Shown here piece by piece: positions 46,650 through 64,000 of a stretch of 64,000 bases of DNA. The notes below the pieces were generated by a model. The model was given only the letters and a program-made list of their open reading frames with translations, had not been told where the DNA came from and ran no database searches. Made by a program: the position numbers and the translations under genes. Source of the DNA: Raillietiella orientalis (Eukaryota). The stretch lies in assembly GCA_036172245.1 (NCBI GenBank), contig JAYWIR010000015.1, positions 1,674,001 to 1,738,000 of the forward strand, given 5' to 3'. Numbering within the stretch: the stretch's first letter is position 1; every line of letters starts with the position of its first letter.

Positions 46650-49600
46650 TTATTGAAATCGTATCATGTTCCCTAGCTTGAGCCAATGTACAGATTCCTT
46701 GCAAAGATCCACATCACCCATAAACAGAGTCACAGCCCCCAAAAATTCATTTTCCTGAACCAAATCGTAATTCCAAACTGATGCTTGCATTGTACGCTGT
46801 TGTAATACTTCCAGGGGCATGCGATATTCCAACTAACACAAATAAAATTAGCAAATTGCTTGTATAAACAAGTTCACTTACCATTTCCATAAAGGTTGGA
46901 TGACAGCTTTTTTTAACAACTCGGGTTTTACGCTTTGTTATTCTCAATGCATCAGGTTGTAAGTATACTTTCACATATGCGGAAGGTTGTTGACCATTAG
47001 ATGCATGCAGATCTCGTGCATGATGAATCATAAGTTGCAATGTTCCACGGCAATAGAGCAGTGATAAACGAAGTTCCCCATACACTCTTCCCAACTGATA
47101 TTTTTCCAAATTCATTTCTTTACGCTCTATAAAGCAAGCTTCTTACTCTCAGGAAAAGTATTCTGGTACCTACTTTGGATAATGCTGTCCTGGGCTCCTG
47201 TGTCTTGTACATCTCGTTGTAGCTGATGGAAAAAAGTATATACCAAATCAGAATGGGCAATTTCTGGAGCTAATTGGAACAGCGAATCCAGAAATTTATC
47301 TATTTCTGTGCACCTCCTTTGTGCTACTTGTTTAATGCTGGAGCGACCAATAGATTTTCCTCGAGGCAGGCTATGGCATGCTGCTAAAGGAAAATGGAGA
47401 CATAATTTCTGATGTAACTCGCAAAATTCACGATAAGAACGAAAAAGAAACGAAGGAGTCAATCTGCCTTCTCTTTCTACTTTCACTACATACACATAGA
47501 ATTTTTCAGGTGCATAGCGCTTTTGAAAACTAACTATGCAAACATTTTGAATGCGTCCCTCTAGCTGTATGCTACATCTGATGTTAACAACTGCACATAA
47601 AATAAGGGTTCTTACCTATATGTTTTAGGAACAAAGCTTAATAATGAATTGCTATCAGTTGGAAAACGTAACTGCCCGAGTTGATGAATGAAGAAATTCA
47701 CTTGAGTAAACCAAGATCTTAAGGATTCTTCAATAAGGCGAGTAAATGTAGCTGCTGCTTCAGCCTTTGACATTTCAGGCAGTAAAACTGACTGAATGTA
47801 CTTGATAGAATCTTTGGTGAGATCTGAGATGCTTGATGAAACCATCTGGATGTGTGTTAAAAAATATACACGTATTTTTTAAATGCAGTTACCAAAGCAA
47901 ACAGATTGCAGAAAACAGCACTGTATTTCCTAAGAATATTGAATGCTTCACAACAGAGATCAACAAAATACTGGAATTTTTCCGTTGGTTTGACTCCATC
48001 ATTAATGACATATACCATGTCTGGTGTAAGGACAAAAGGTGCTCGATCACGGCGGAAATTGCCAAAGCGCTGAGCATTGCCCAAAAGTCGGCTAAAATCA
48101 ATATGAAAGAGGTGGCCAGTTGGCTTTAACATAATGTTGTCACTGTGTCGGTCACAGAGCCCTAACACATAACTAGCCACACAATATGCTGCACAAGAGG
48201 CTGTGAAATTGCACACAGCTTCTGCATATGTCATGGAAGTAGGATTATGAAGAGCCAACCAAGCAGCAATTGGACGATCTTGAAAAGCACCAGTCAATCC
48301 TCTTTCAGATTGAATTCGGCATAAAGAATCAGCATCCCCAATCAATTCCAATATACCTGAGTAGTAACACCAAATCAACCAAATAAAATGCAAATGAAAT
48401 ACCTTTCTTAGTGCCAGTTGGAATACAAAAATACGTTATGACTTTTAAATCCAAACCTTCTTGCAGCCATAACTTATCCATCATCCAAATTAATTGCATG
48501 GTAAGCCTATCTAGACGCAAATCATCGCCAATCTATATCCACCCAGACTTGAAAAACAATCACTGAAGAATTCTTTTTTACCTTAAAAAGTACTTCAATA
48601 GGGGAATCCATAAAGCCAGAATTTACAAAACAAATCTTCAAAGGCAGATTATAAGAATTAAAGTATGAACTAGAGCGCACATCAACAGAGCACACACGCA
48701 TACCAATGCTCAAAGGAAGGCTAACAGCACCAAGCTGTGATTTCAGTTTAGCATCCACCAACTGCAATTCTCGATGCAGGATATTCACTTTGGATGTGTT
48801 GTCACGTGCTGCTTTTAAATAATATGCCACACTTTCCAAATCCTAAAGTTGCAAAATAAACAGCGTCAGATCTTTACAATAATGAGAAACTTGCAAACCT
48901 TAATAAGACAACGCTGGCTAGCCAGCTGTTCACAGAAACTGATACCAACTGTTTCAAGGAGACCTCGCCTAAGAAGTTCGGTTCGCCTCCAATATCTCCA
49001 TTCTAATGGATGTCCAGATATATCCTGGCATTCTTCTACACTGCACTGCAAAAGCCAATATAAATGATGACAGAATGCAGGAGAAAGCAGAGCTTTTTCT
49101 AAAAGAAAGTGTGACAACACTGATGACTCATAAGTTTCATGCCGGAGGGCTTGGACAAGTTGAGGCAAGAAGTATACAAGTTCATCACTTTTCATAGCTT
49201 TGAGCCAATGAACAGCTTGTGCTCTTACTTCAATATCTGGAAAACTTCATAGGCATGCCACTGAGCTCTAAAGTTGCCTCACCATGGTAAGAGCAGCTGC
49301 AGGGCGTCAACAGGGTACATTGGCACCCACGAACGGATCATACTATATAGATCACTCAAGCTAAACCAATCCCAACTATGAGCAGACAATAAAATTTTAG
49401 GCAATGCCTGCGGAAATTGAGAAAGATAATGACGTTTTTCCCAGAGCACTTCTCGTTCTTCTGGTCGTATCCTAAACGAAATTTTTGAAATACAGCCTTT
49501 ATATGTTGCTTACCATGCATAAGGATCACGTTCAATAATATCCATTAATTGTTCTTTTGTGTTTTTATCTAAACTATCAAAATCTTGCATAGGAATAACT

Positions 49601-52600
49601 GTCACATCATCTGGAACTGGAGGAAAATACACCTTATCTCCTAAGACTGGGATTTCTAAAACTGGAACAAATAAATCACAATCAAACAGAGAAGTAAAGA
49701 CTGCAATTCCTACCCAACCTCCCCAACAACTGGGCTGGACGCAATCCCAATGGAGGTGCAGGCCCAATTCGTTTATCAGATATTGGAGGCCACAATTCCA
49801 AAATAAAAAGTCCTTGTCGCATCCTCCTAAGTGGCATTTTAAAGCATTATAGATTTCTTATTTACTATTCTGATTACATTAACAAATTGTATACATACCT
49901 TTTGCAGTCTATTAACTGTAAGGCAGTCCAAGCTAATTCAACATACGAAAGTTGATTTTCAGTATTTTGTAATCCTACCAAGGAAAAGACGATACGAGAT
50001 TCACGGGGCAAAAGGCACAAGGGAACATCTGGAAACCGGAGCCTGAAACAATTATGAATCTTACAGAATTTATGCTACCTTGAGGCGTTTTCAACATTAG
50101 TAAAGATTTAGCAAACCGAATACATACAAATTTCTGATACTTAAATTACAATAAATGCACTGAAAAGATAATCAAAACATTACGTAAGTATACAACTGAT
50201 TTTTTATTCTATTATGTGCTTTTTTTTTTCACAATTCTACAACATATGTTCTCTATCTTCACTTTACATGTATTTTATTTTCATCATGTTGCTACGTATG
50301 TTTTTTCATCACCTATTTGAGAGCTGTATTTATGGGTACACTGCATGAAGCAATAGAAAACATTTACATTATATATTAAATCAGATCAAAGAAACTTTTC
50401 ATTTAGAAAACCTGCTTCAAAACAAATCATTACATGGACTTACGGATTTGTTGCTCAGCAAGTCCTTCTATGCTAATTTCAAAATTAAGCTTTCATTTAT
50501 TGTTTTTTATATATACCTACGCCATTCTGGAGTCTAAATGCCATAATTACATTATATTTATAATCATTTCTAAATTATATATAATTACATTATATAAGAT
50601 TTAGAACACCAAAAGAGCACTTGAAAGTTAGACACGAATTTCATTTTAAAACCACCAAGTTCAAGGACTCAAATTAACACATATGCATACCATTAAAGAA
50701 GCAGCTATTAGTATTTTTAAAGTTGCCCCTTTATGCATATAAATGTCAACAATGTACACATCAATCACTTTATATGCTATCGAATTTATGTAAATAAACT
50801 TGTTCCAAGCAAGTTTGGAATTCATAAGTGTTACAAATCTCAATAAGCAAACATTTGTAAAGATGATGCAATATCTGTTCACGTAAAAAGATGGAATTAA
50901 TTACAATAGTTATCAAACTGATCATAAATTATGATATTTAACAGAAAATCATTTGAATTGATGGAATATTTAACAACAATCATCACCAAATCTGCTCACC
51001 ACTCATCTATGAAAACTTTTTCTTTGAAACCTGGAAGCAAGTGCTGAGATGCTGTAGATGCAGTTCCTCCAGTGATCAATGTGGTCCCATAATAAAGGGA
51101 AACATGCACACCAAACATCTCATATTGACATTCAAGTTGTAAACCATGAATACTATCCACTCTGACTTCAAAGCTTTCTGATAAATCAGGCAAATTTAGC
51201 ATTTCTAGACGGATGATAATGCATAATATTTAGAGGAATGTCACGAACTTAATTCAGAAGTTTCTTCAGAAAGAACAAAAAAATCCACAGGATATGAATG
51301 ACTGTATGCATCAATAAGATGACGCATTGCATCAGTTAATCTTGCCAGTTCAGAGTCCATGATAGATTGCTGATAATCACTAAGGATTTCTGATTGTCTA
51401 TCTGATACTGAACTACTCTGCTCACTTGATTTCTGCTAAAAATGTCTAAATCAGTCAAGTCAGGAGCAAATTTTCCTGATACCTTTAACTGGCTATGTGC
51501 AATGACAGTACACACTTCAGATAAACCTTTCTTGGCATCTATCAGCTCCTTAGTCTCCAGAGTATTAAGACAGGAACACACAGCTTTTACAGCTTGAATT
51601 ACACTATCTGCTCGAACACATGAAATCACTGACTGATGCAAACGGCTGATTTCCCTTTCATAAGCATCTATGATTACATGACAATGGGATTTATTGGTAC
51701 AGATTAAAAGCAAACATTATTGTTTGTATGTAAAAAGAAATAAAAGAAAATAGTAAAAAGAAAATGAAAAGTACCAATAAGATAGAGGAGAAATCAACAA
51801 GGATTATGAAAAGCACATACAACTGCATTCTTACCTAAAGTAATTAATAAATGCTGCAACACAAGATCTTGCTGCCCCACTTCTAAAAGTTTCTCTGGTC
51901 TGAGATGACTTAATTGGATATCATCATCTTTCTATTGTATATTTCGTAAAATGCCTTTTAGAAAGAATACCTACGCTGCGTAAAAAAGGCCTTTCCAAAT
52001 CTTGAAGAGGTAGCAAACATAAATGGACAGCTTGGTTGTTTCGAGAACACTGTTGAATAAAGTCATACTCTTTTAGTAAGGATGTTGAAGCTAAGTACTC
52101 TGCTCGGCCCCAGACTTGAAATATATACTCATCTGCATGGCTCACTCCTTTACCTAGGTGGCACAGCACTTGGCACAGTACATGTTGAACAGAAGAACTA
52201 ACTTAAAGCACAACATCAAGGATTGCACCAACAAAGAACTCAATCTTACTGTTGCATTGAAGTCTCCATTTCGGTAAATTAGCACTGGTCTGTATTTCTA
52301 GCCATATATTTGTCTCTTGCAAATGTGCACATTCTGACTTACTGCTAATAACCACTCCTGCATTTGTAACATGATCAGAGTAAACATACTGTGCTAAAAC
52401 AAACACTAACTAAACCTATGATTTGTATTGCTCACCTCGCAGATTAATCAACAAACGACAAAACATTTCAACTTCATCATCAAACTCATTTGACTGCCTT
52501 GACTTTACTTGAATTGTCAAATAATCATGGATCTGCTAACACATGCACAATCATGTAAGGTCATTTTAAAGGTGCAAAAATTATTTAAAATATCATAATA

Positions 52601-57420: not shown

Positions 57421-58745
57421 GACTTGAAATTTCATATGAAGATTGATGACAGCTGCCGGATTCAGAAGCTTCGATAATAAAAGATAGTTTATTTTCATAC
57501 TTATTGACACACCAATGTTTATAATTTTGTAAGAGTTCATTTCCGATTACTAATTTTGGTCAAATGGTAGTCACACCATACCTATTTTTCTCTCATGCTT
57601 CCGTTTCATCTACGAATCACAATAAAGTATTAGCCAATCCCTTATGATGACTTATTTCAGTACCATGAAGTCAATGAAGTCAGTTTGCTCCCTCTAGCCA
57701 CGAAATGCTTTAAAAAATTGGGACCAAACTTGCGATCTCGGAATGTGGACAAATAAGATAACCCTATTTTGTTTACTCGGAGGTATCCCTGATAAGGTAA
57801 CCTAAAAACCAACGATAAAGAAGACTATTTGACAAACATAACTCGAGGATTTCGGAGTAATCGAAAGAAATTCAAATTAGAAAAATAGACGTAAACATGA
57901 AGTCGGTGACTTCAAGAGCAATGCATTTTCACTGATGAGATTTTACTCTTGAGAAAATGATTAAGTGAAAGGAGGACCGATTAATACTTGATACTAATAC
58001 AATTGTGTGCACAAAGGTTCATGAATTTGTTCTTTACTTCGAAATTATGGCGAGACTACTGAATTAGTGCACGCAATTTGTGTCAGAATTATTGAATAAA
58101 AAAGAGGAAATCTATCTGTCTGCACACTATTATGGAGAGATGATAAGAAATACTATTACTGTAATACGTGGAGAGGAACAACAGCTATCTAATGTCCATC
58201 ATGAACGATGCTTTGCATTTAATTCAATTCAGTTCAAATTGATCTTGCTTACGAGCGAAGGAAGATTGTGGGTTAGAAATTCAAATTTTTAGAATACATC
58301 TCAGGACTTCAAGCAAATACTGTCAAAAATGCAGACCTAATAATGCGATCCCATAAACAAAATTAATGACGTATTCTAGTGAGATCCGAATTCTAGTCAG
58401 GTCGAATTCTCTCATCGTCAATGCCAATAGCAGTCCAAGACCTTATAAAGACAATAAAATGCTATTCATATTTGAGAATCAATTGCAAAAACTTGACTTT
58501 TTTCAGTGCTAGGATTTTCAAGAGTGTCAAAAGCGTCGATAAAACTATAGTCTCTTCTATTTTTCGCGAAGGAGTGTTATTAGTAGGTCTTTTCCTTTTC
58601 TTTTTTTTTTTTTAGTGGAACTCTTGTGTTCACAAAACTATCATACCGTTTTTCGGATTTTATGCGGTTTTAGTTTAAGAATGTGAACACACCAAAATAA
58701 ATATGATTCATTAACTTCGTCAAATTTCTTGTTTCCCAACAAAAA

Positions 58746-59473
58746 TTTTATCTAAACTATCAAAATCTTGCATAGGAATAACTGTCACATCATCTGGAAC
58801 TGGAGGAAAATACACCTTATCTCCTAAGACTGGGATTTCTAAAACTGGAACAAATAAATCACAATCAAACAGAGAAGTAAAGACTGCAATTCCTACCCAA
58901 CCTCCCCAACAACTGGGCTGGACGCAATCCCAATGGAGGTGCAGGCCCAATTCGTTTATCAGATATTGGAGGCCACAATTCCAAAATAAAAAGTCCTTGT
59001 CGCATCCTCCTAAGTGGCATTTTAAAGCATTATAGATTTCTTATTTACTATTCTGATTACATTAACAAATTGTATACATACCCTTTGCAGTCTATTAACT
59101 GTAAGGCAGTCCAAGCTAATTCAACATACGAAAGTTGATTTTCAGTATTTTGTAATCCTACCAAGGAAAAGACGATACGAGATTCACGGGGCAAAAGGCA
59201 CAAGGGAACATCTGGAAACCGGAGCCTGAAACAATTATGAATCTTACAGAATTTATGCTACCTTGAGGCGTTTTCAACATTAGTAAAGATTTAGCAAACC
59301 GAATACATACAAATTTCTGATACTTAAATTACAATAAATGCACTGAAAAGATAATCAAAACATTACGTAAGTATACAACTGATTTTTTATTCTATTATGT
59401 GCTTTTTTTTTTCACAATTCTACAACATATGTTCTCTATCTTCACTTTACATGTATTTTATTTTCATCATGTT
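58746..59473 (-). pseudogene. near-identical direct duplicate of PI3K segment 49563-50290 (C2-domain exons plus introns)
   Basis: About 728 bp are colinear from ttttatctaaactatc to ttcatcatgtt. I saw one substitution (ccttttgcag vs ccctttgcag). Introns are retained. Confidence 0.95.
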
Positions 59474-59476
59474 CCA

Positions 59477-59521
59477 AATGCTATGGAGTGTAAGTGATAG
59501 TCACTTACACTCCATAGCATT
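59477..59521. repeat. perfect 21-bp-arm hairpin with 3-nt loop
   Basis: aatgctatggagtgtaagtga-tag-tcacttacactccatagcatt. Confidence 0.95.
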
Positions 59522-61741
59522 GGTAAGGGTAAGCATTTCTCCATAACATCAGCGTAAGCTCATCCCTGATTCAGGAATGTCGGAGAAAAGCAAAACAAAA
59601 CACCGAAATCAGTATGCGAATGTTGTGCACGAACTTTTTGCCATAGCTTCGGCATTCTTTCATTTCTTTAATCTTCCACTGAAGGAACGACACATTCGTT
59701 ACCTGCACTCTTACTTTCAGGATCCATCATCAAGGTTGCGTTTCAGGTAATCGGTTATGCTCTTGTTCGCCTGCAAGCAAGAAGCCATCCATAGAGGTTT
59801 AGACGACAAAAACTTTCTGGAATCTCCCTCGCGAGAGACAATACCGAAAAATAGAATAATTCGAAATGGAAAAAGAGTTTGATTGCCTCGATCTCTAAGG
59901 CTCCCCGTTGATCTCTAAGGCTTCTCTAAGGCTTCCTGTAGTCAAGATCGTAATCATGGCCTGCTCCAGGGTGCTTCACATGAGCGAAACGATGACCGAT
60001 TTCAAATGCAAAAAATCACCATGGCACAATACCTCATCCGGACTTGAAATCAAATGGCTCATTTCTGAGCCACTTGGCAATCATTTCAGATTTTCTCGGA
60101 CATAATTGTGGATGGCATTTTTTCGATGTCTTCATCTTTGGACAATCAGAGGGAATGACAAAGCACAAAGTGCAGAGCTCATTCTCGGGATTTCGGTTAG
60201 GAAGTTCATTTCCGCATTGATTCTTCACGTGTTTCGAAAGGGTGACTTCTTTCGAAGGTACTTCGGAAACCCCAGATTTTCGATACGGTAATCGATCATC
60301 TGTGACTAGCAAGACCCAGCCAAACCACTCTTATCTACATTAAAAGTGCATTTCCTCAAGTCGGACTTGCATCAGTTCCGGGAACAAGGCGCTCGGATAG
60401 TCCAAAGTGAAGTGTTCCAAGTTTGAATTCGATTAAGGCTTGAAGTCAGCCCCAGTGAATCCCATGAGTTTTCGAAACTGATTCCAGATTGCACCCACTG
60501 AAAACGACCATTTCCATGAACACTTTGTTTTGCTTTGCGAAAAGGCATAAACAAAAAAAAAAAAGGAAAAAATTCGACATTCCCCTTCAAATTTTTCGTT
60601 TTCCCATTTTTCCAATGTTGCTGTGTTTTCATGCCAAACTCCCCACGCAGAGGGAACTTCCAGGAAGCCCTCTCCTCCACTGGACCTGACCCCCAAGTGG
60701 GCCTTCCGGCGGCGGTGCGCGCGCCAAGAGCCGTGCAAGGTGGGCGCGCGGGTCTGACAAAGGGAACTCGTTTAAAGCATAAACTCTGGATGGGTGACCC
60801 TTTTGCTTGAGCAACCTTTTATATAGGAGTTACGTGCCTATTTGTGGGCCATGCCACATCTGAGTGCTGTTACAGCCTGCAACAAGGTTTTTTTCCGAGC
60901 TTCCATGTTTCCCGAACCCGACCGTCGTCTCCGAGATTCGACCTTTTTTTTTTTTTTTATGGCACCGGAAAGCTTGTCAGCAGGGCTGGGCATGTGCCGT
61001 TGCACGGTGTGTGTGTTTGTAACGTGTTTTTGACAATTACGTGTGCAAGCAGGCACTGCCAAAAGTTCGTGTAAAATGAATTTCTTGCTCCAATGATGCT
61101 TGCTGCGGAGCAAGTGCTCTTTGATAAAGATTTCACGATGAAGTGTAATTACGTTTTATAAATTGCCATGCCAATTCGTGCGTGTTTTAGAAGTTGCAAG
61201 TTGTTTGTAAATTCTTTTCTTTTTTTCCCCCTGTTCATCGCGTGTGTACGGTATTCACCTTGGCGAGGCAGACATAAGGCACGCTGTCAGGCCAAAGGAC
61301 CGCAATAACAAAAGTGCTGTCGTTGCTTGGAGACTGCTTCGAGCGGTGGACCGTTGAAATGGTATGCATTTCGTCGAAGCTCAGAACACATCTCGTTAAT
61401 TTTTGAACTTTCTGTAACGTGATTTGGAGTGTGATTTTAGTCATGTAATGTTTGTGCCTTTTTCGAACTCCTGTCCGAAGCCGGGAGGTGCATAGATTTT
61501 TTAAAATGAAATTGCATGGGATTGCAAACAGACGTAGTTTGCCATAGTTCAGTGTTTAAATGTCACTGTGCATGCCTTAATGTTTTCGAGATTTTTGTGT
61601 CAGCATTTTGTATCAGTCAATTTTTTTTTTTTTTTAAAGTGCAGTCATTCTTTACAATGTGTGCGTTATAACCTTTGTGCAAGAGTTATTCACATTGTCT
61701 TTTACTTTAGGATAGGCGCTATTATTATTTATTTAAAAGGA

Positions 61742-61975
61742 ATGTCTATGAAAAGTGATCTCTACTTTTCAAGCGAAAAGCAGTTTGGAGATTATAGTGC
61801 ATTTTACGTTGGAGTTTCCATTATAACTGTAGTGTTTTTGTTGTTGACTTTATTTAATATTGTAATGTGTTGTGGCCATTATCGTCATTACTGGAATGAT
61901 AAAAATACAGGAAATCGCCTAATTTTACCTCTTTGGGTCTCATCTCCAGACCAAAATCAACCAATAGAATTTTGA
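61742..61975 (+). CDS. small single-pass membrane protein 1 (77 aa; alternative ATG at 61748)
   Basis: MSMKSDLYFSSEKQFGDYSAFYVGVSIITVVFLLLTLFNIVMCCGHYRHYWNDKNTGNRLILPLWVSSPDQNQPIEF has a clear hydrophobic helix and a juxtamembrane CC. A splice acceptor (ttttactttag) lies ~32 nt upstream. Confidence 0.7.
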   Translation: MSMKSDLYFSSEKQFGDYSAFYVGVSIITVVFLLLTLFNIVMCCGHYRHYWNDKNTGNRLILPLWVSSPDQNQPIEF

Positions 61976-62002
61976 TTTAAACAGTACTTAAAAATCACCA
62001 AT

Positions 62003-62185
62003 ATGGGATTCCACATTTTTTGGCCCCCTCTGAGCATTTTAGTTCTTTTTGTGGGTGTTGTTTTAGTGCTTGTCATAAAGTATGGCCATAAGTGTTTTCA
62101 TGTTCCAAGTGGTCAAATAATTGCTACACCAGATGTGACCATGAAAGTGCAAACTTCTAAGCTTTATAAAGAAATTTCCGTCTAA
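62003..62185 (+). CDS. small single-pass membrane protein 2 (60 aa)
   Basis: MGFHIFWPPLSILVLFVGVVLVLVIKYGHKCFH..KLYKEISV has a good ATG context (aatATGg) and a hydrophobic helix followed by basic residues. An AT-rich, 3'UTR-like sequence follows. Confidence 0.68.
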   Translation: MGFHIFWPPLSILVLFVGVVLVLVIKYGHKCFHVPSGQIIATPDVTMKVQTSKLYKEISV

Positions 62186-64000
62186 AACATGATTTTAGGT
62201 GCCTTAATGTATATAATTTTATGAATGTATTTAAAACTAGTATTTCATATTGTATGCATGACATGATTCCTTGATTGTATTATTACTAGTTATGTATACT
62301 GCTTGAGCTGTTGCACTTGAAAATATGCTTTGCTTTAATTTCAGCTTATTTGAAAACCTGTGTAAGGATTGCTTCCTGATCTATTTTTATGGATGACCTC
62401 AGTGTAAGAGATGCACATTCTTAATGTAAACATATAAAAAAATATATTTTGTATTCATGATCATTTTGGATTAAAATTATTAAGGGTGATGGATGGTTTG
62501 TTTGATTTTTTTTAGCTAAAAATGAAATGCTTATGGTAATCTTACTTGCAAAAGATGTATGTATTTTCTTGCAATCCATTTCATAGGAAAATTTCCAAGT
62601 GCTCCATATTTATTATCGGATATCGTAGGTTAGTTGGAGAAAATTTGCCTTCACACCGAAAAAATCAGTATTATGGTGAGCATGAACGAACTTGTCACTC
62701 CATTCCTATGCAAGTTATTTAAAATCAGAGATTTGCAGGAACAGTTACTTTTTCCATGTAGGTGGTGGTTCACTTATGTCTTTATCCGTACATGTAGCGT
62801 ATTTTATATTTGTACAGAAAGCATTACACATCAAGTTTCAGTGGTTCTTCCATGCAATCATGCAATTTGAAAATAAATTTCGTGAATTCTTTTAGATTAA
62901 CGTAAGTTTTGACTTTCATCGAGTACCAACAAAAGAAAGCACTTATGCCTTACACCATAATCTAGTGACCTGATTACATTTGGGTGTATCCAGTGGTGGT
63001 TCATGCTGGGGGGGTGTACCAACTGTGTGCTACATGCAATACGAATGCCCAAGACGCTGGTGTCGAGCCTTTGGATGATTCAGTGCTGCTTGCAAGCCCA
63101 TGGATTCCCTTCGAAATGCCGTACTTTTTGATTTGCTGCTATGTGACCAGCATGTTACCTGCCGTGTGACCAGCTTCAGCAGCGACACCCAAGTTTTGCC
63201 GTGAAGCACTGGCAGCAGATGTTGAGCTGCTTAGGTCTTCAGGAAGGCCATGTTTTCGACTCGGTCGGCAACGCATCTCCAATTTGTTGATCTGTTTTGC
63301 TCAAAATAACGACACAGGTTTCTTTCCACACCCATCACTCTTGTGTGGTGCGTTTCTTTGTGGTTCCAAGAATGATCCAAGGAAGGTTCTAACGATGGCT
63401 TGTAGCATAGTGCACGTCTTTTCTATGTCATTCCCGATTATACGAAATCTTTGACCGTGAGGAGAAGACCTTGAGCTCTGCCCGAAGTTCCCTCCTCGTG
63501 GAACCGGCTGGAAATGTGGACCACCTCGGTTCTTCCTCATCCAGGTGAGCTTACGAAGCAATCTTCCTCATGTAAAAGGCTGCCATGCTGGCGACGTTCC
63601 TTCGCTGCGATCGCGTCTCCAAGACACGAGAAGTCTTTCTGTTGCATTTTGTGTAACCACCCTGACTACAGCTTGACGTTGAAGCTCGTTGCTTGGGATT
63701 CGAAATGCATCTGTATGCAATGGCGGAAAACATATCAAAAACGAATAAATTTGGTCAGCTCTCAGTGGAATGCATCGGCGACCTCTTCCTCAGTTTGTGA
63801 CCACATTGCTTACGTGCTTCGAAAAAATTAACCAGGAGGCATCTATAGATGTAGGTCATGATATTCCGGAGATTCTGAATAAGCAAATGCTTCCAAATAT
63901 TCTTGAGAGTCTCTAAATGTTTCCTTTTTATTTTTTCAAACCACGAGGAAATACCTTCCGCCCCACATCTATTTGCCGTTTGTGTGACGGATTCGTATGT

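Follow-up and report, generated by a model that had tools for sequence, protein, structure and literature searches.

The tandem pair of small open reading frames in the Raillietiella orientalis window (the window being the whole stretch of 64,000 nucleotides that was analysed) is very probably the orthologue of Drosophila würmchen, a gene in which one mRNA encodes two small single-pass membrane proteins. On this assignment the locus is not a new system but the counterpart of a described Drosophila bicistron. According to the available text of PMC11475943, Drosophila würmchen gives a single bicistronic transcript whose two membrane products belong to the same complex; Wrm1 is a core septate-junction protein on which the junction of the tracheal tube depends (PMC11475943), and Wrm2 is an essential membrane peptide of 57 aa (PMC11475943). 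Würmchen is also listed, in the accessible part of PMC8006247, as a core septate-junction protein without a known domain, and both sources give Königsmann et al. 2020 (PMID 32361005) as the würmchen study. The orthology is based on one wrm1 name in NCBI and on the layout of the locus, the fly Wrm1 not having been identified among the matches. As in Drosophila, two single-pass membrane ORFs stand in tandem, with Wrm1 first and a Wrm2 of about 57-60 aa second.

Layout and genomic context

The features of the locus and its flanks are as follows.

60640..60830, plus strand: possible promoter, a GC-rich patch and a TATA-like element at 60820-60826 (by eye)
61742..61975, plus strand: ORF1, probable Wrm1 orthologue, 77 aa and TGA, intronless (homology search; single genome match)
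61799..61867, plus strand: transmembrane helix of Wrm1, residues about 20-42 (read by eye)
61976..62002, plus strand: intercistronic spacer of 27 nt, with no AUG and no poly(A) hexamer, in frame and stop-free
62003..62185, plus strand: ORF2, Wrm2-type peptide, 60 aa and TAA (profile, hhalign and genome search)
62186..62890, plus strand: AT-rich stretch, probably the 3' UTR, holding ATTAAA (62470) and AATAAA (62872)

The initial annotation had described two intronless ORFs of 77 and 60 aa on the same strand, 27 nt apart, with a spacer devoid of a poly(A) signal. The coordinates agree with this description, and neither AATAAA nor ATTAAA occurs in the 27 nt, the nearest downstream being the two in the probable 3' UTR. 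Such a spacer, like those of 10 and 13 nt in two related loci (L009 and L011, see below), leaves no room for separate transcription units, and the pair is presumably carried on one spliced mRNA in Raillietiella orientalis.

When the genome (210 Mb in 491 contigs) was searched, ORF1 matched at a single place, and ORF2 gave one strong match, its own locus, and one at E 0.41. The latter (G000:C4:4208481-4208579, 42% over 33 aa) is probably an unrelated helix.

Two minus-strand genes lie next to the pair: one codes for a class II-type PI3-kinase, with its kinase, PIK and PX domains, and the other is UTP20, in which Pfam matched four of the five exons tested. A 728-bp piece of the PI3-kinase gene, made up of C2-domain-like exons and introns, is doubled at window positions 58745-59472 and 49563-50290 with 99.9% identity. 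The second copy lies about 9 kb off, which on the minus strand is upstream of the gene; either part of the gene was duplicated very recently or the doubling arose in the assembly. The duplicated piece is directly bordered by an inverted repeat, nearly perfect and about 25 bp long (59472-59525, by eye).

The first cistron

ORF1 was compared by phmmer with 1.84 billion representative proteins, which gave 77 matches at E<=1e-3, 14 of them at <=1e-10 and the best at 4.8e-17. Three long matches (1133, 1817 and 1221 aa; 27-32% identity in several stretches) were excluded as probable low-complexity similarity. The second-best match, at E 2.4e-14, bears the NCBI name 'uncharacterized protein wrm1 [Cloeon dipterum]', and the other taxon-labelled matches are uncharacterised insect proteins from a mayfly, beetles, a gall midge and aphids. 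Among 30 proteins whose names were looked up by cluster, wrm1 occurred once and wrm2 not at all.

The protein consists of one transmembrane helix followed by the motif N-x3-4-CC...YW-x-D-x2-TGNR, and the family matches have [DN][YF]xxFY, the helix, N-x3-4-CC and YW-x-D-x2-TG(NR) in common. Judging from the charge distribution, Wrm1 would adopt an N-out/C-in topology with a cytosolic di-cysteine, and these cysteines may be palmitoylated. Insect-type forms are 117-160 aa long, and an ES[DE][IF] C-terminal end is present in 14 of 74 matches. Unlike fly Wrm1 (162 aa), the intronless window protein of 77 aa ends directly past the conserved core without this insect tail, and several unnamed short forms end alike. 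The missing intron and the missing tail would suit an arthropod outside the insects.

General resources were uninformative about the pair. Pfam had nothing near its cut-off for ORF1, ORF2 or 28 Wrm1-family proteins, the word-indexed protein search with ORF1 yielded no candidate, the ESM Atlas returned only generic single-pass clusters for ORF1 and ORF2, and a profile search of the PDB gave CD9 at E 0.1 as its best match and nothing else. Hemotin/Stannin, SMIM5/18/22 and TMEM52 resemble the peptides in size, in having one helix and in their juxtamembrane cysteines, and appeared weakly in both Atlas and Pfam. With scores of 0.84-0.92, few shared features and Pfam values far below cut-off, these were set aside as generic helix similarity; for Hemotin/Stannin in particular, the Stannin Pfam family was found in neither peptide nor in the 28 Wrm1-family proteins, and the Atlas scores were only 0.87-0.89. 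The FXYD ion-pump regulators were rejected likewise, as no such Pfam family occurs in the 28 members and the PDB search had led only to CD9.

The second cistron

ORF2 begins with M-x-F-H-hydrophobic-aromatic-W-P, continues with a helix and K-Y-G, and ends in E-hydrophobic-S-V; it has one hydrophobic segment, the top 19-residue stretch reaching a hydropathy of 2.67. For comparison, metagenome contigs were scanned with a 10-sequence ORF1 alignment, which biases the outcome towards two short peptide patterns; 333 stretches were obtained and seven loci (L006-L012) confirmed. All seven carry an ORF2 homologue downstream of ORF1, with strand and order unchanged, as membrane ORFs of 58-122 aa that share an N-terminal W/F-P motif, a helix and a K/R/M/I-aromatic-G/S turn. 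Five of them end in E-hydrophobic-[SE]-V, as the window ORF2 does. One locus, L006, is dipteran-like, its ORF1 being 82% identical to the gall-midge (dipteran) protein P0009 and its ORF2 58 aa long, and it is through this locus, together with position and size, that ORF2 can be linked, provisionally, to fly Wrm2. In another, the Wrm1 reading frame is shifted at an A run (L007:167-340), probably by a sequencing or assembly error, and that locus was excluded from the codon tests. The collection holds five of the seven relatives' ORF2s, in clusters of which none is named (0/5) and none is wrm2.

A profile built from the seven relatives, with the window ORF left out, gives the window ORF2 35.7 bits. 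The control maxima were 10.2 bits for 2000 full shuffles, 23.1 bits for 2000 shuffles made separately inside the N-terminus, the helix and the tail, and 9.1 bits for 104 Wrm1-family proteins. In a six-frame translation of 84 kb the window ORF2 ranked first and the runner-up scored 6.8 bits, and hhalign aligned it with the relatives' ORF2 at a probability of 97% (E 7e-11). The ORF2 of L007, searched alone against the 210-Mb genome, had the window ORF2 as its sole match (E 0.0075). Pairwise against the relatives, pN is below pS for ORF1 (0.18-0.46 versus 0.72-0.93) and, against all seven, for ORF2 (0.15-0.58 versus 0.68-0.97); the direction, which is the usable part because dS is mostly saturated, is the same in 18 of 18 pairs.

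It is conceivable that ORF1 alone is functional, ORF2 being the remnant of a decaying gene or a hydrophobic frame left open by chance. Its identity to the relatives is just 19-34%, it lacks two residues that are invariant in all seven (an Arg past the helix and a late Tyr), and two word-indexed protein searches with ORF2 only, with 37 and 2 candidates, contained none at E<=1. However, its frame is intact, its start, N-terminal motif and C-terminal E-hydrophobic-S-V are conserved, its profile score stands well above the shuffles, and pN is below pS in every comparison, so that we regard this explanation as extremely improbable.

Nearly as improbable is a fusion, in which read-through of the TGA, or a sequencing error there, would give a two-helix Wrm1-Wrm2 protein of 147 aa. 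The spacer is in frame and free of stops, which makes this lone TGA the sole stop between the two frames. However, the spacers of relatives measure 134, 81, 10, 80 and 13 nt, the second of these being a genomic length that seems to include an intron, and frame is thus not maintained among them; none of the 104 Wrm1-family proteins exceeds 9.1 bits on the ORF2 profile. Leaky stops have the context TGA-C, whereas the stop here is TGA-T. Moreover, ORF2 retains a strong AUG of its own that aligns with the relatives' starts, and the short Wrm1 forms stop at the same place. Two separate peptides remain the preferred reading.

These results bear on what had been proposed from the DNA at the outset. 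The suggestion that the motifs look selected rather than random is borne out by the matches to ORF1 and by the position of ORF2 above all 4000 shuffles, and the proposed conservation check, namely that both peptides be kept, adjacent, in this order and under purifying selection, came out positively in 7/7 loci and, for the direction of selection, in 18/18 pairs. The idea of a bicistronic micropeptide locus thereby gains strength, since the pair is kept and matches the Drosophila würmchen layout. Membership of both products in one membrane complex would likewise agree, by analogy, with the shared complex that the available text of PMC11475943 reports for the fly proteins. A complex prediction for ORF1 with ORF2, run without alignments, scored 0.01, which speaks neither for nor against binding. 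The statement that a named family could not be assigned no longer holds, as würmchen fits and the second-best ORF1 match is named wrm1.

Translation of the second cistron

Leaky scanning, possibly combined with re-initiation after tiny upstream ORFs (uORFs), is the likely route to the second protein. Some scanning ribosomes would skip the ORF1 start, whose context is the second-best, traverse a nearly AUG-free coding region and then initiate at the strong ORF2 AUG, and the Wrm1:Wrm2 ratio would thereby be fixed.

In the seven relatives, which include the kindred loci L008, L009 and L011, the 2834 nt between the two starts (introns included) contain 7 AUGs, compared with 41 in the 1557 nt of ORF2 and 30 in the 1768 nt that come after it. 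In the five relatives with an intact ORF1, a single out-of-frame AUG stands within ORF1 against 12.8 expected by synonymous randomisation (0/5000 runs as low), L007 being left out for its frameshift and L012 for an intron. Met accounts for 5 of 2637 residues in the Wrm1 core (63 proteins) versus 19 of 512 in Wrm2. The starts differ as well: position -3 is G for ORF1 in 7/8 loci and A for ORF2 in 7/8, although G too is a purine, so that the ORF1 start is weak in a relative sense only. The ORF2 start of the window has A at -3 and G at +4. Depletion of AUGs together with this asymmetry of start contexts is the pattern of leaky scanning seen in sloth1/2. In Drosophila, sloth1 and sloth2 are likewise a bicistronic pair of small ORFs with a very short spacer, a poorer first start and an optimal second one, and leaky scanning was shown there by a reporter, according to the available part of PMC9681215. 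The sloth peptides differ in being mitochondrial complex III peptides; we liken the two systems in mechanism only, without sequence comparison.

The window copy is the weakest leaky-scanning case of the set. Within 258 nt it has three internal AUGs, all with a base other than A at -3, and its out-of-frame AUGs (1 versus 1.9 expected, P 0.27) are non-significant alone. The out-of-frame AUG is the following.

61896..61922, plus strand: out-of-frame AUG in ORF1, preceded by G at -3; the frame begun there has 8 codons (length by eye) and closes 80 nt short of ORF2

A different origin of the second protein, either chiefly from a monocistronic isoform made by ORF1-skipping splicing or a downstream promoter, or else by re-initiation or internal entry, appears unlikely, though distinctly less so than the remnant or the fusion. 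The spacer of L008 (L008:2359-2439) contains an apparent GT...AG intron, about 14 nt being left once it is spliced (by eye), and its acceptor could join an upstream exon directly; short uORFs, which would suit re-initiation, flank the ORF1 start in 7/7 relatives. However, the depletion of AUGs over ORF1 is predicted by scanning and unnecessary for a skipping isoform, and the window spacer has a single AG and no pyrimidine tract (by eye). In addition, the two ORFs of L006 and of L010 follow each other uninterrupted by introns, on contigs of 1.1 kb that appear transcript-like. We therefore favour leaky scanning.

The 5' end and upstream ORFs

An AUG lies within 30 nt upstream (<=30 nt) of ORF1 in all seven relatives and opens a frame of 3-8 codons. 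The chance expectation is about 0.3-0.5 for each, with a product of 0.0016, a figure to be read with the loci not being independent. The window has no upstream AUG within the 60 genomic nt before ORF1. Splicing might supply one, for which the candidate elements are these.

61359..61367, plus strand: candidate upstream-exon end with AUG and GT donor (consensus 6/9; speculative)
61693..61710, plus strand: candidate 3' splice site, a pyrimidine tract and AG, 31 nt before ORF1 (alternatives 61639, 61644, 61715 and 61739)

A splice from 61361 to 61711 would create a 16-codon uORF across the ORF1 start with its stop at +17, and this hypothetical uORF would share frame and stop with those of L010 and L012. 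Rival donors exist, three matching the consensus 7/9 and at least ten more 6/9, and a different acceptor would lengthen ORF1 rather than make a uORF. The initial annotation had counted one acceptor before the pair; a candidate is indeed present, but it is one of several: 10 AGs occur in 61560-61742, and 61710 (13/17 pyrimidines) competes with 61639 (15/17). A role for the uORF is possible, if somewhat doubtful.

A miR-184 site in related loci

An unbiased count of words shared by the relatives' 3' ends brought out one 7-mer in six of the seven (all except L012), with a chance of 0.002-0.015 per locus; the runner-up, in 5/7, is an overlapping word. The reverse complement of this 7-mer lies in the 3' arm of the genome's own mir-184 hairpin (G000:C2:3473624-3473710), and we take it to be the miR-184 seed. 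We also take the fly gene CG43780 to be wrm1. Table S4 of PMC9100521, as far as the available text goes, has CG43780 in its top 20 of predicted targets for miR-184, so that a miR-184 site has probably been predicted in the fly already. In the accessible part of PMC12677480, miR-184 is described as a predicted regulator of a suite of septate-junction mRNAs. A site in six of seven relatives fits a septate-junction gene and supports the würmchen assignment.

The window itself differs: the 1.5 kb that follow the stop contain no canonical miR-184 site, and a 7-mer lies about 4.4 kb away. It does have the following match, which may simply reflect the Ser-Val-stop codons.

62177..62184, plus strand: imperfect miR-184 seed match with one G:U, overlapping the last ORF2 codons

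The same genome contains a mir-iab-4 hairpin (G000:C3:2803281-2803353, E 2e-14, slightly under the family cut-off), mir-iab-4 not being known outside arthropods. The genome search for mir-282 gave no match, and its controls were equally without one.

Discussion

By analogy with Drosophila and from the sequence, the pair may take part in sealing epithelial barriers in Raillietiella orientalis. The locus departs from its relatives in more than its short Wrm1: its spacer measures 27 nt as compared with 134 nt in the dipteran-like L006, and its Wrm2 ends in E-hydrophobic-S-V, whereas those of L006 and L007 end in Ala. The C-termini of the two proteins vary together across the set. Where Wrm1 is tail-less (the window, L008-L011 and, by eye, L012), Wrm2 ends in E-hydrophobic-[SE]-V; the Ala endings occur in L006, whose Wrm1 ends in ESDI, and in L007. 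A PDZ-type ligand may have moved from one cistron to the other, on the evidence of few loci confounded by kinship.

Taken further, and tentatively, würmchen could be an arthropod-wide bicistron with layered, conserved translational control. A uORF, a second-best start and an AUG-purged Wrm1 would meter ribosomes to Wrm2, the miR-184 site would tie the mRNA to a septate-junction regulon, and a PDZ-type ligand would sit on Wrm2 where Wrm1 is tail-less and on Wrm1 in insects. This genome would then hold a variant without a canonical miR-184 site and perhaps with its uORF across a splice junction. The additional signatures (AUG purge, uORF, miR-184 site and C-terminal ligand) are drawn from eight loci of genomic and metagenomic sequence. 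No description of such layered control of würmchen was found in the literature searched, which leaves out most subscription journals.

The persistence of the two-protein layout across divergent arthropod-type sequences with saturated synonymous sites is one of the modest ways in which the locus matters. The 77-aa form defines a minimal Wrm1 core, and because the relatives of Wrm2 are unnamed in all five clusters found, the ORF2 alignment should aid their annotation. AUG depletion, asymmetry of start contexts, a uORF and a miR-184 site provide testable signatures of how the two proteins of a septate-junction gene may be kept in balance.
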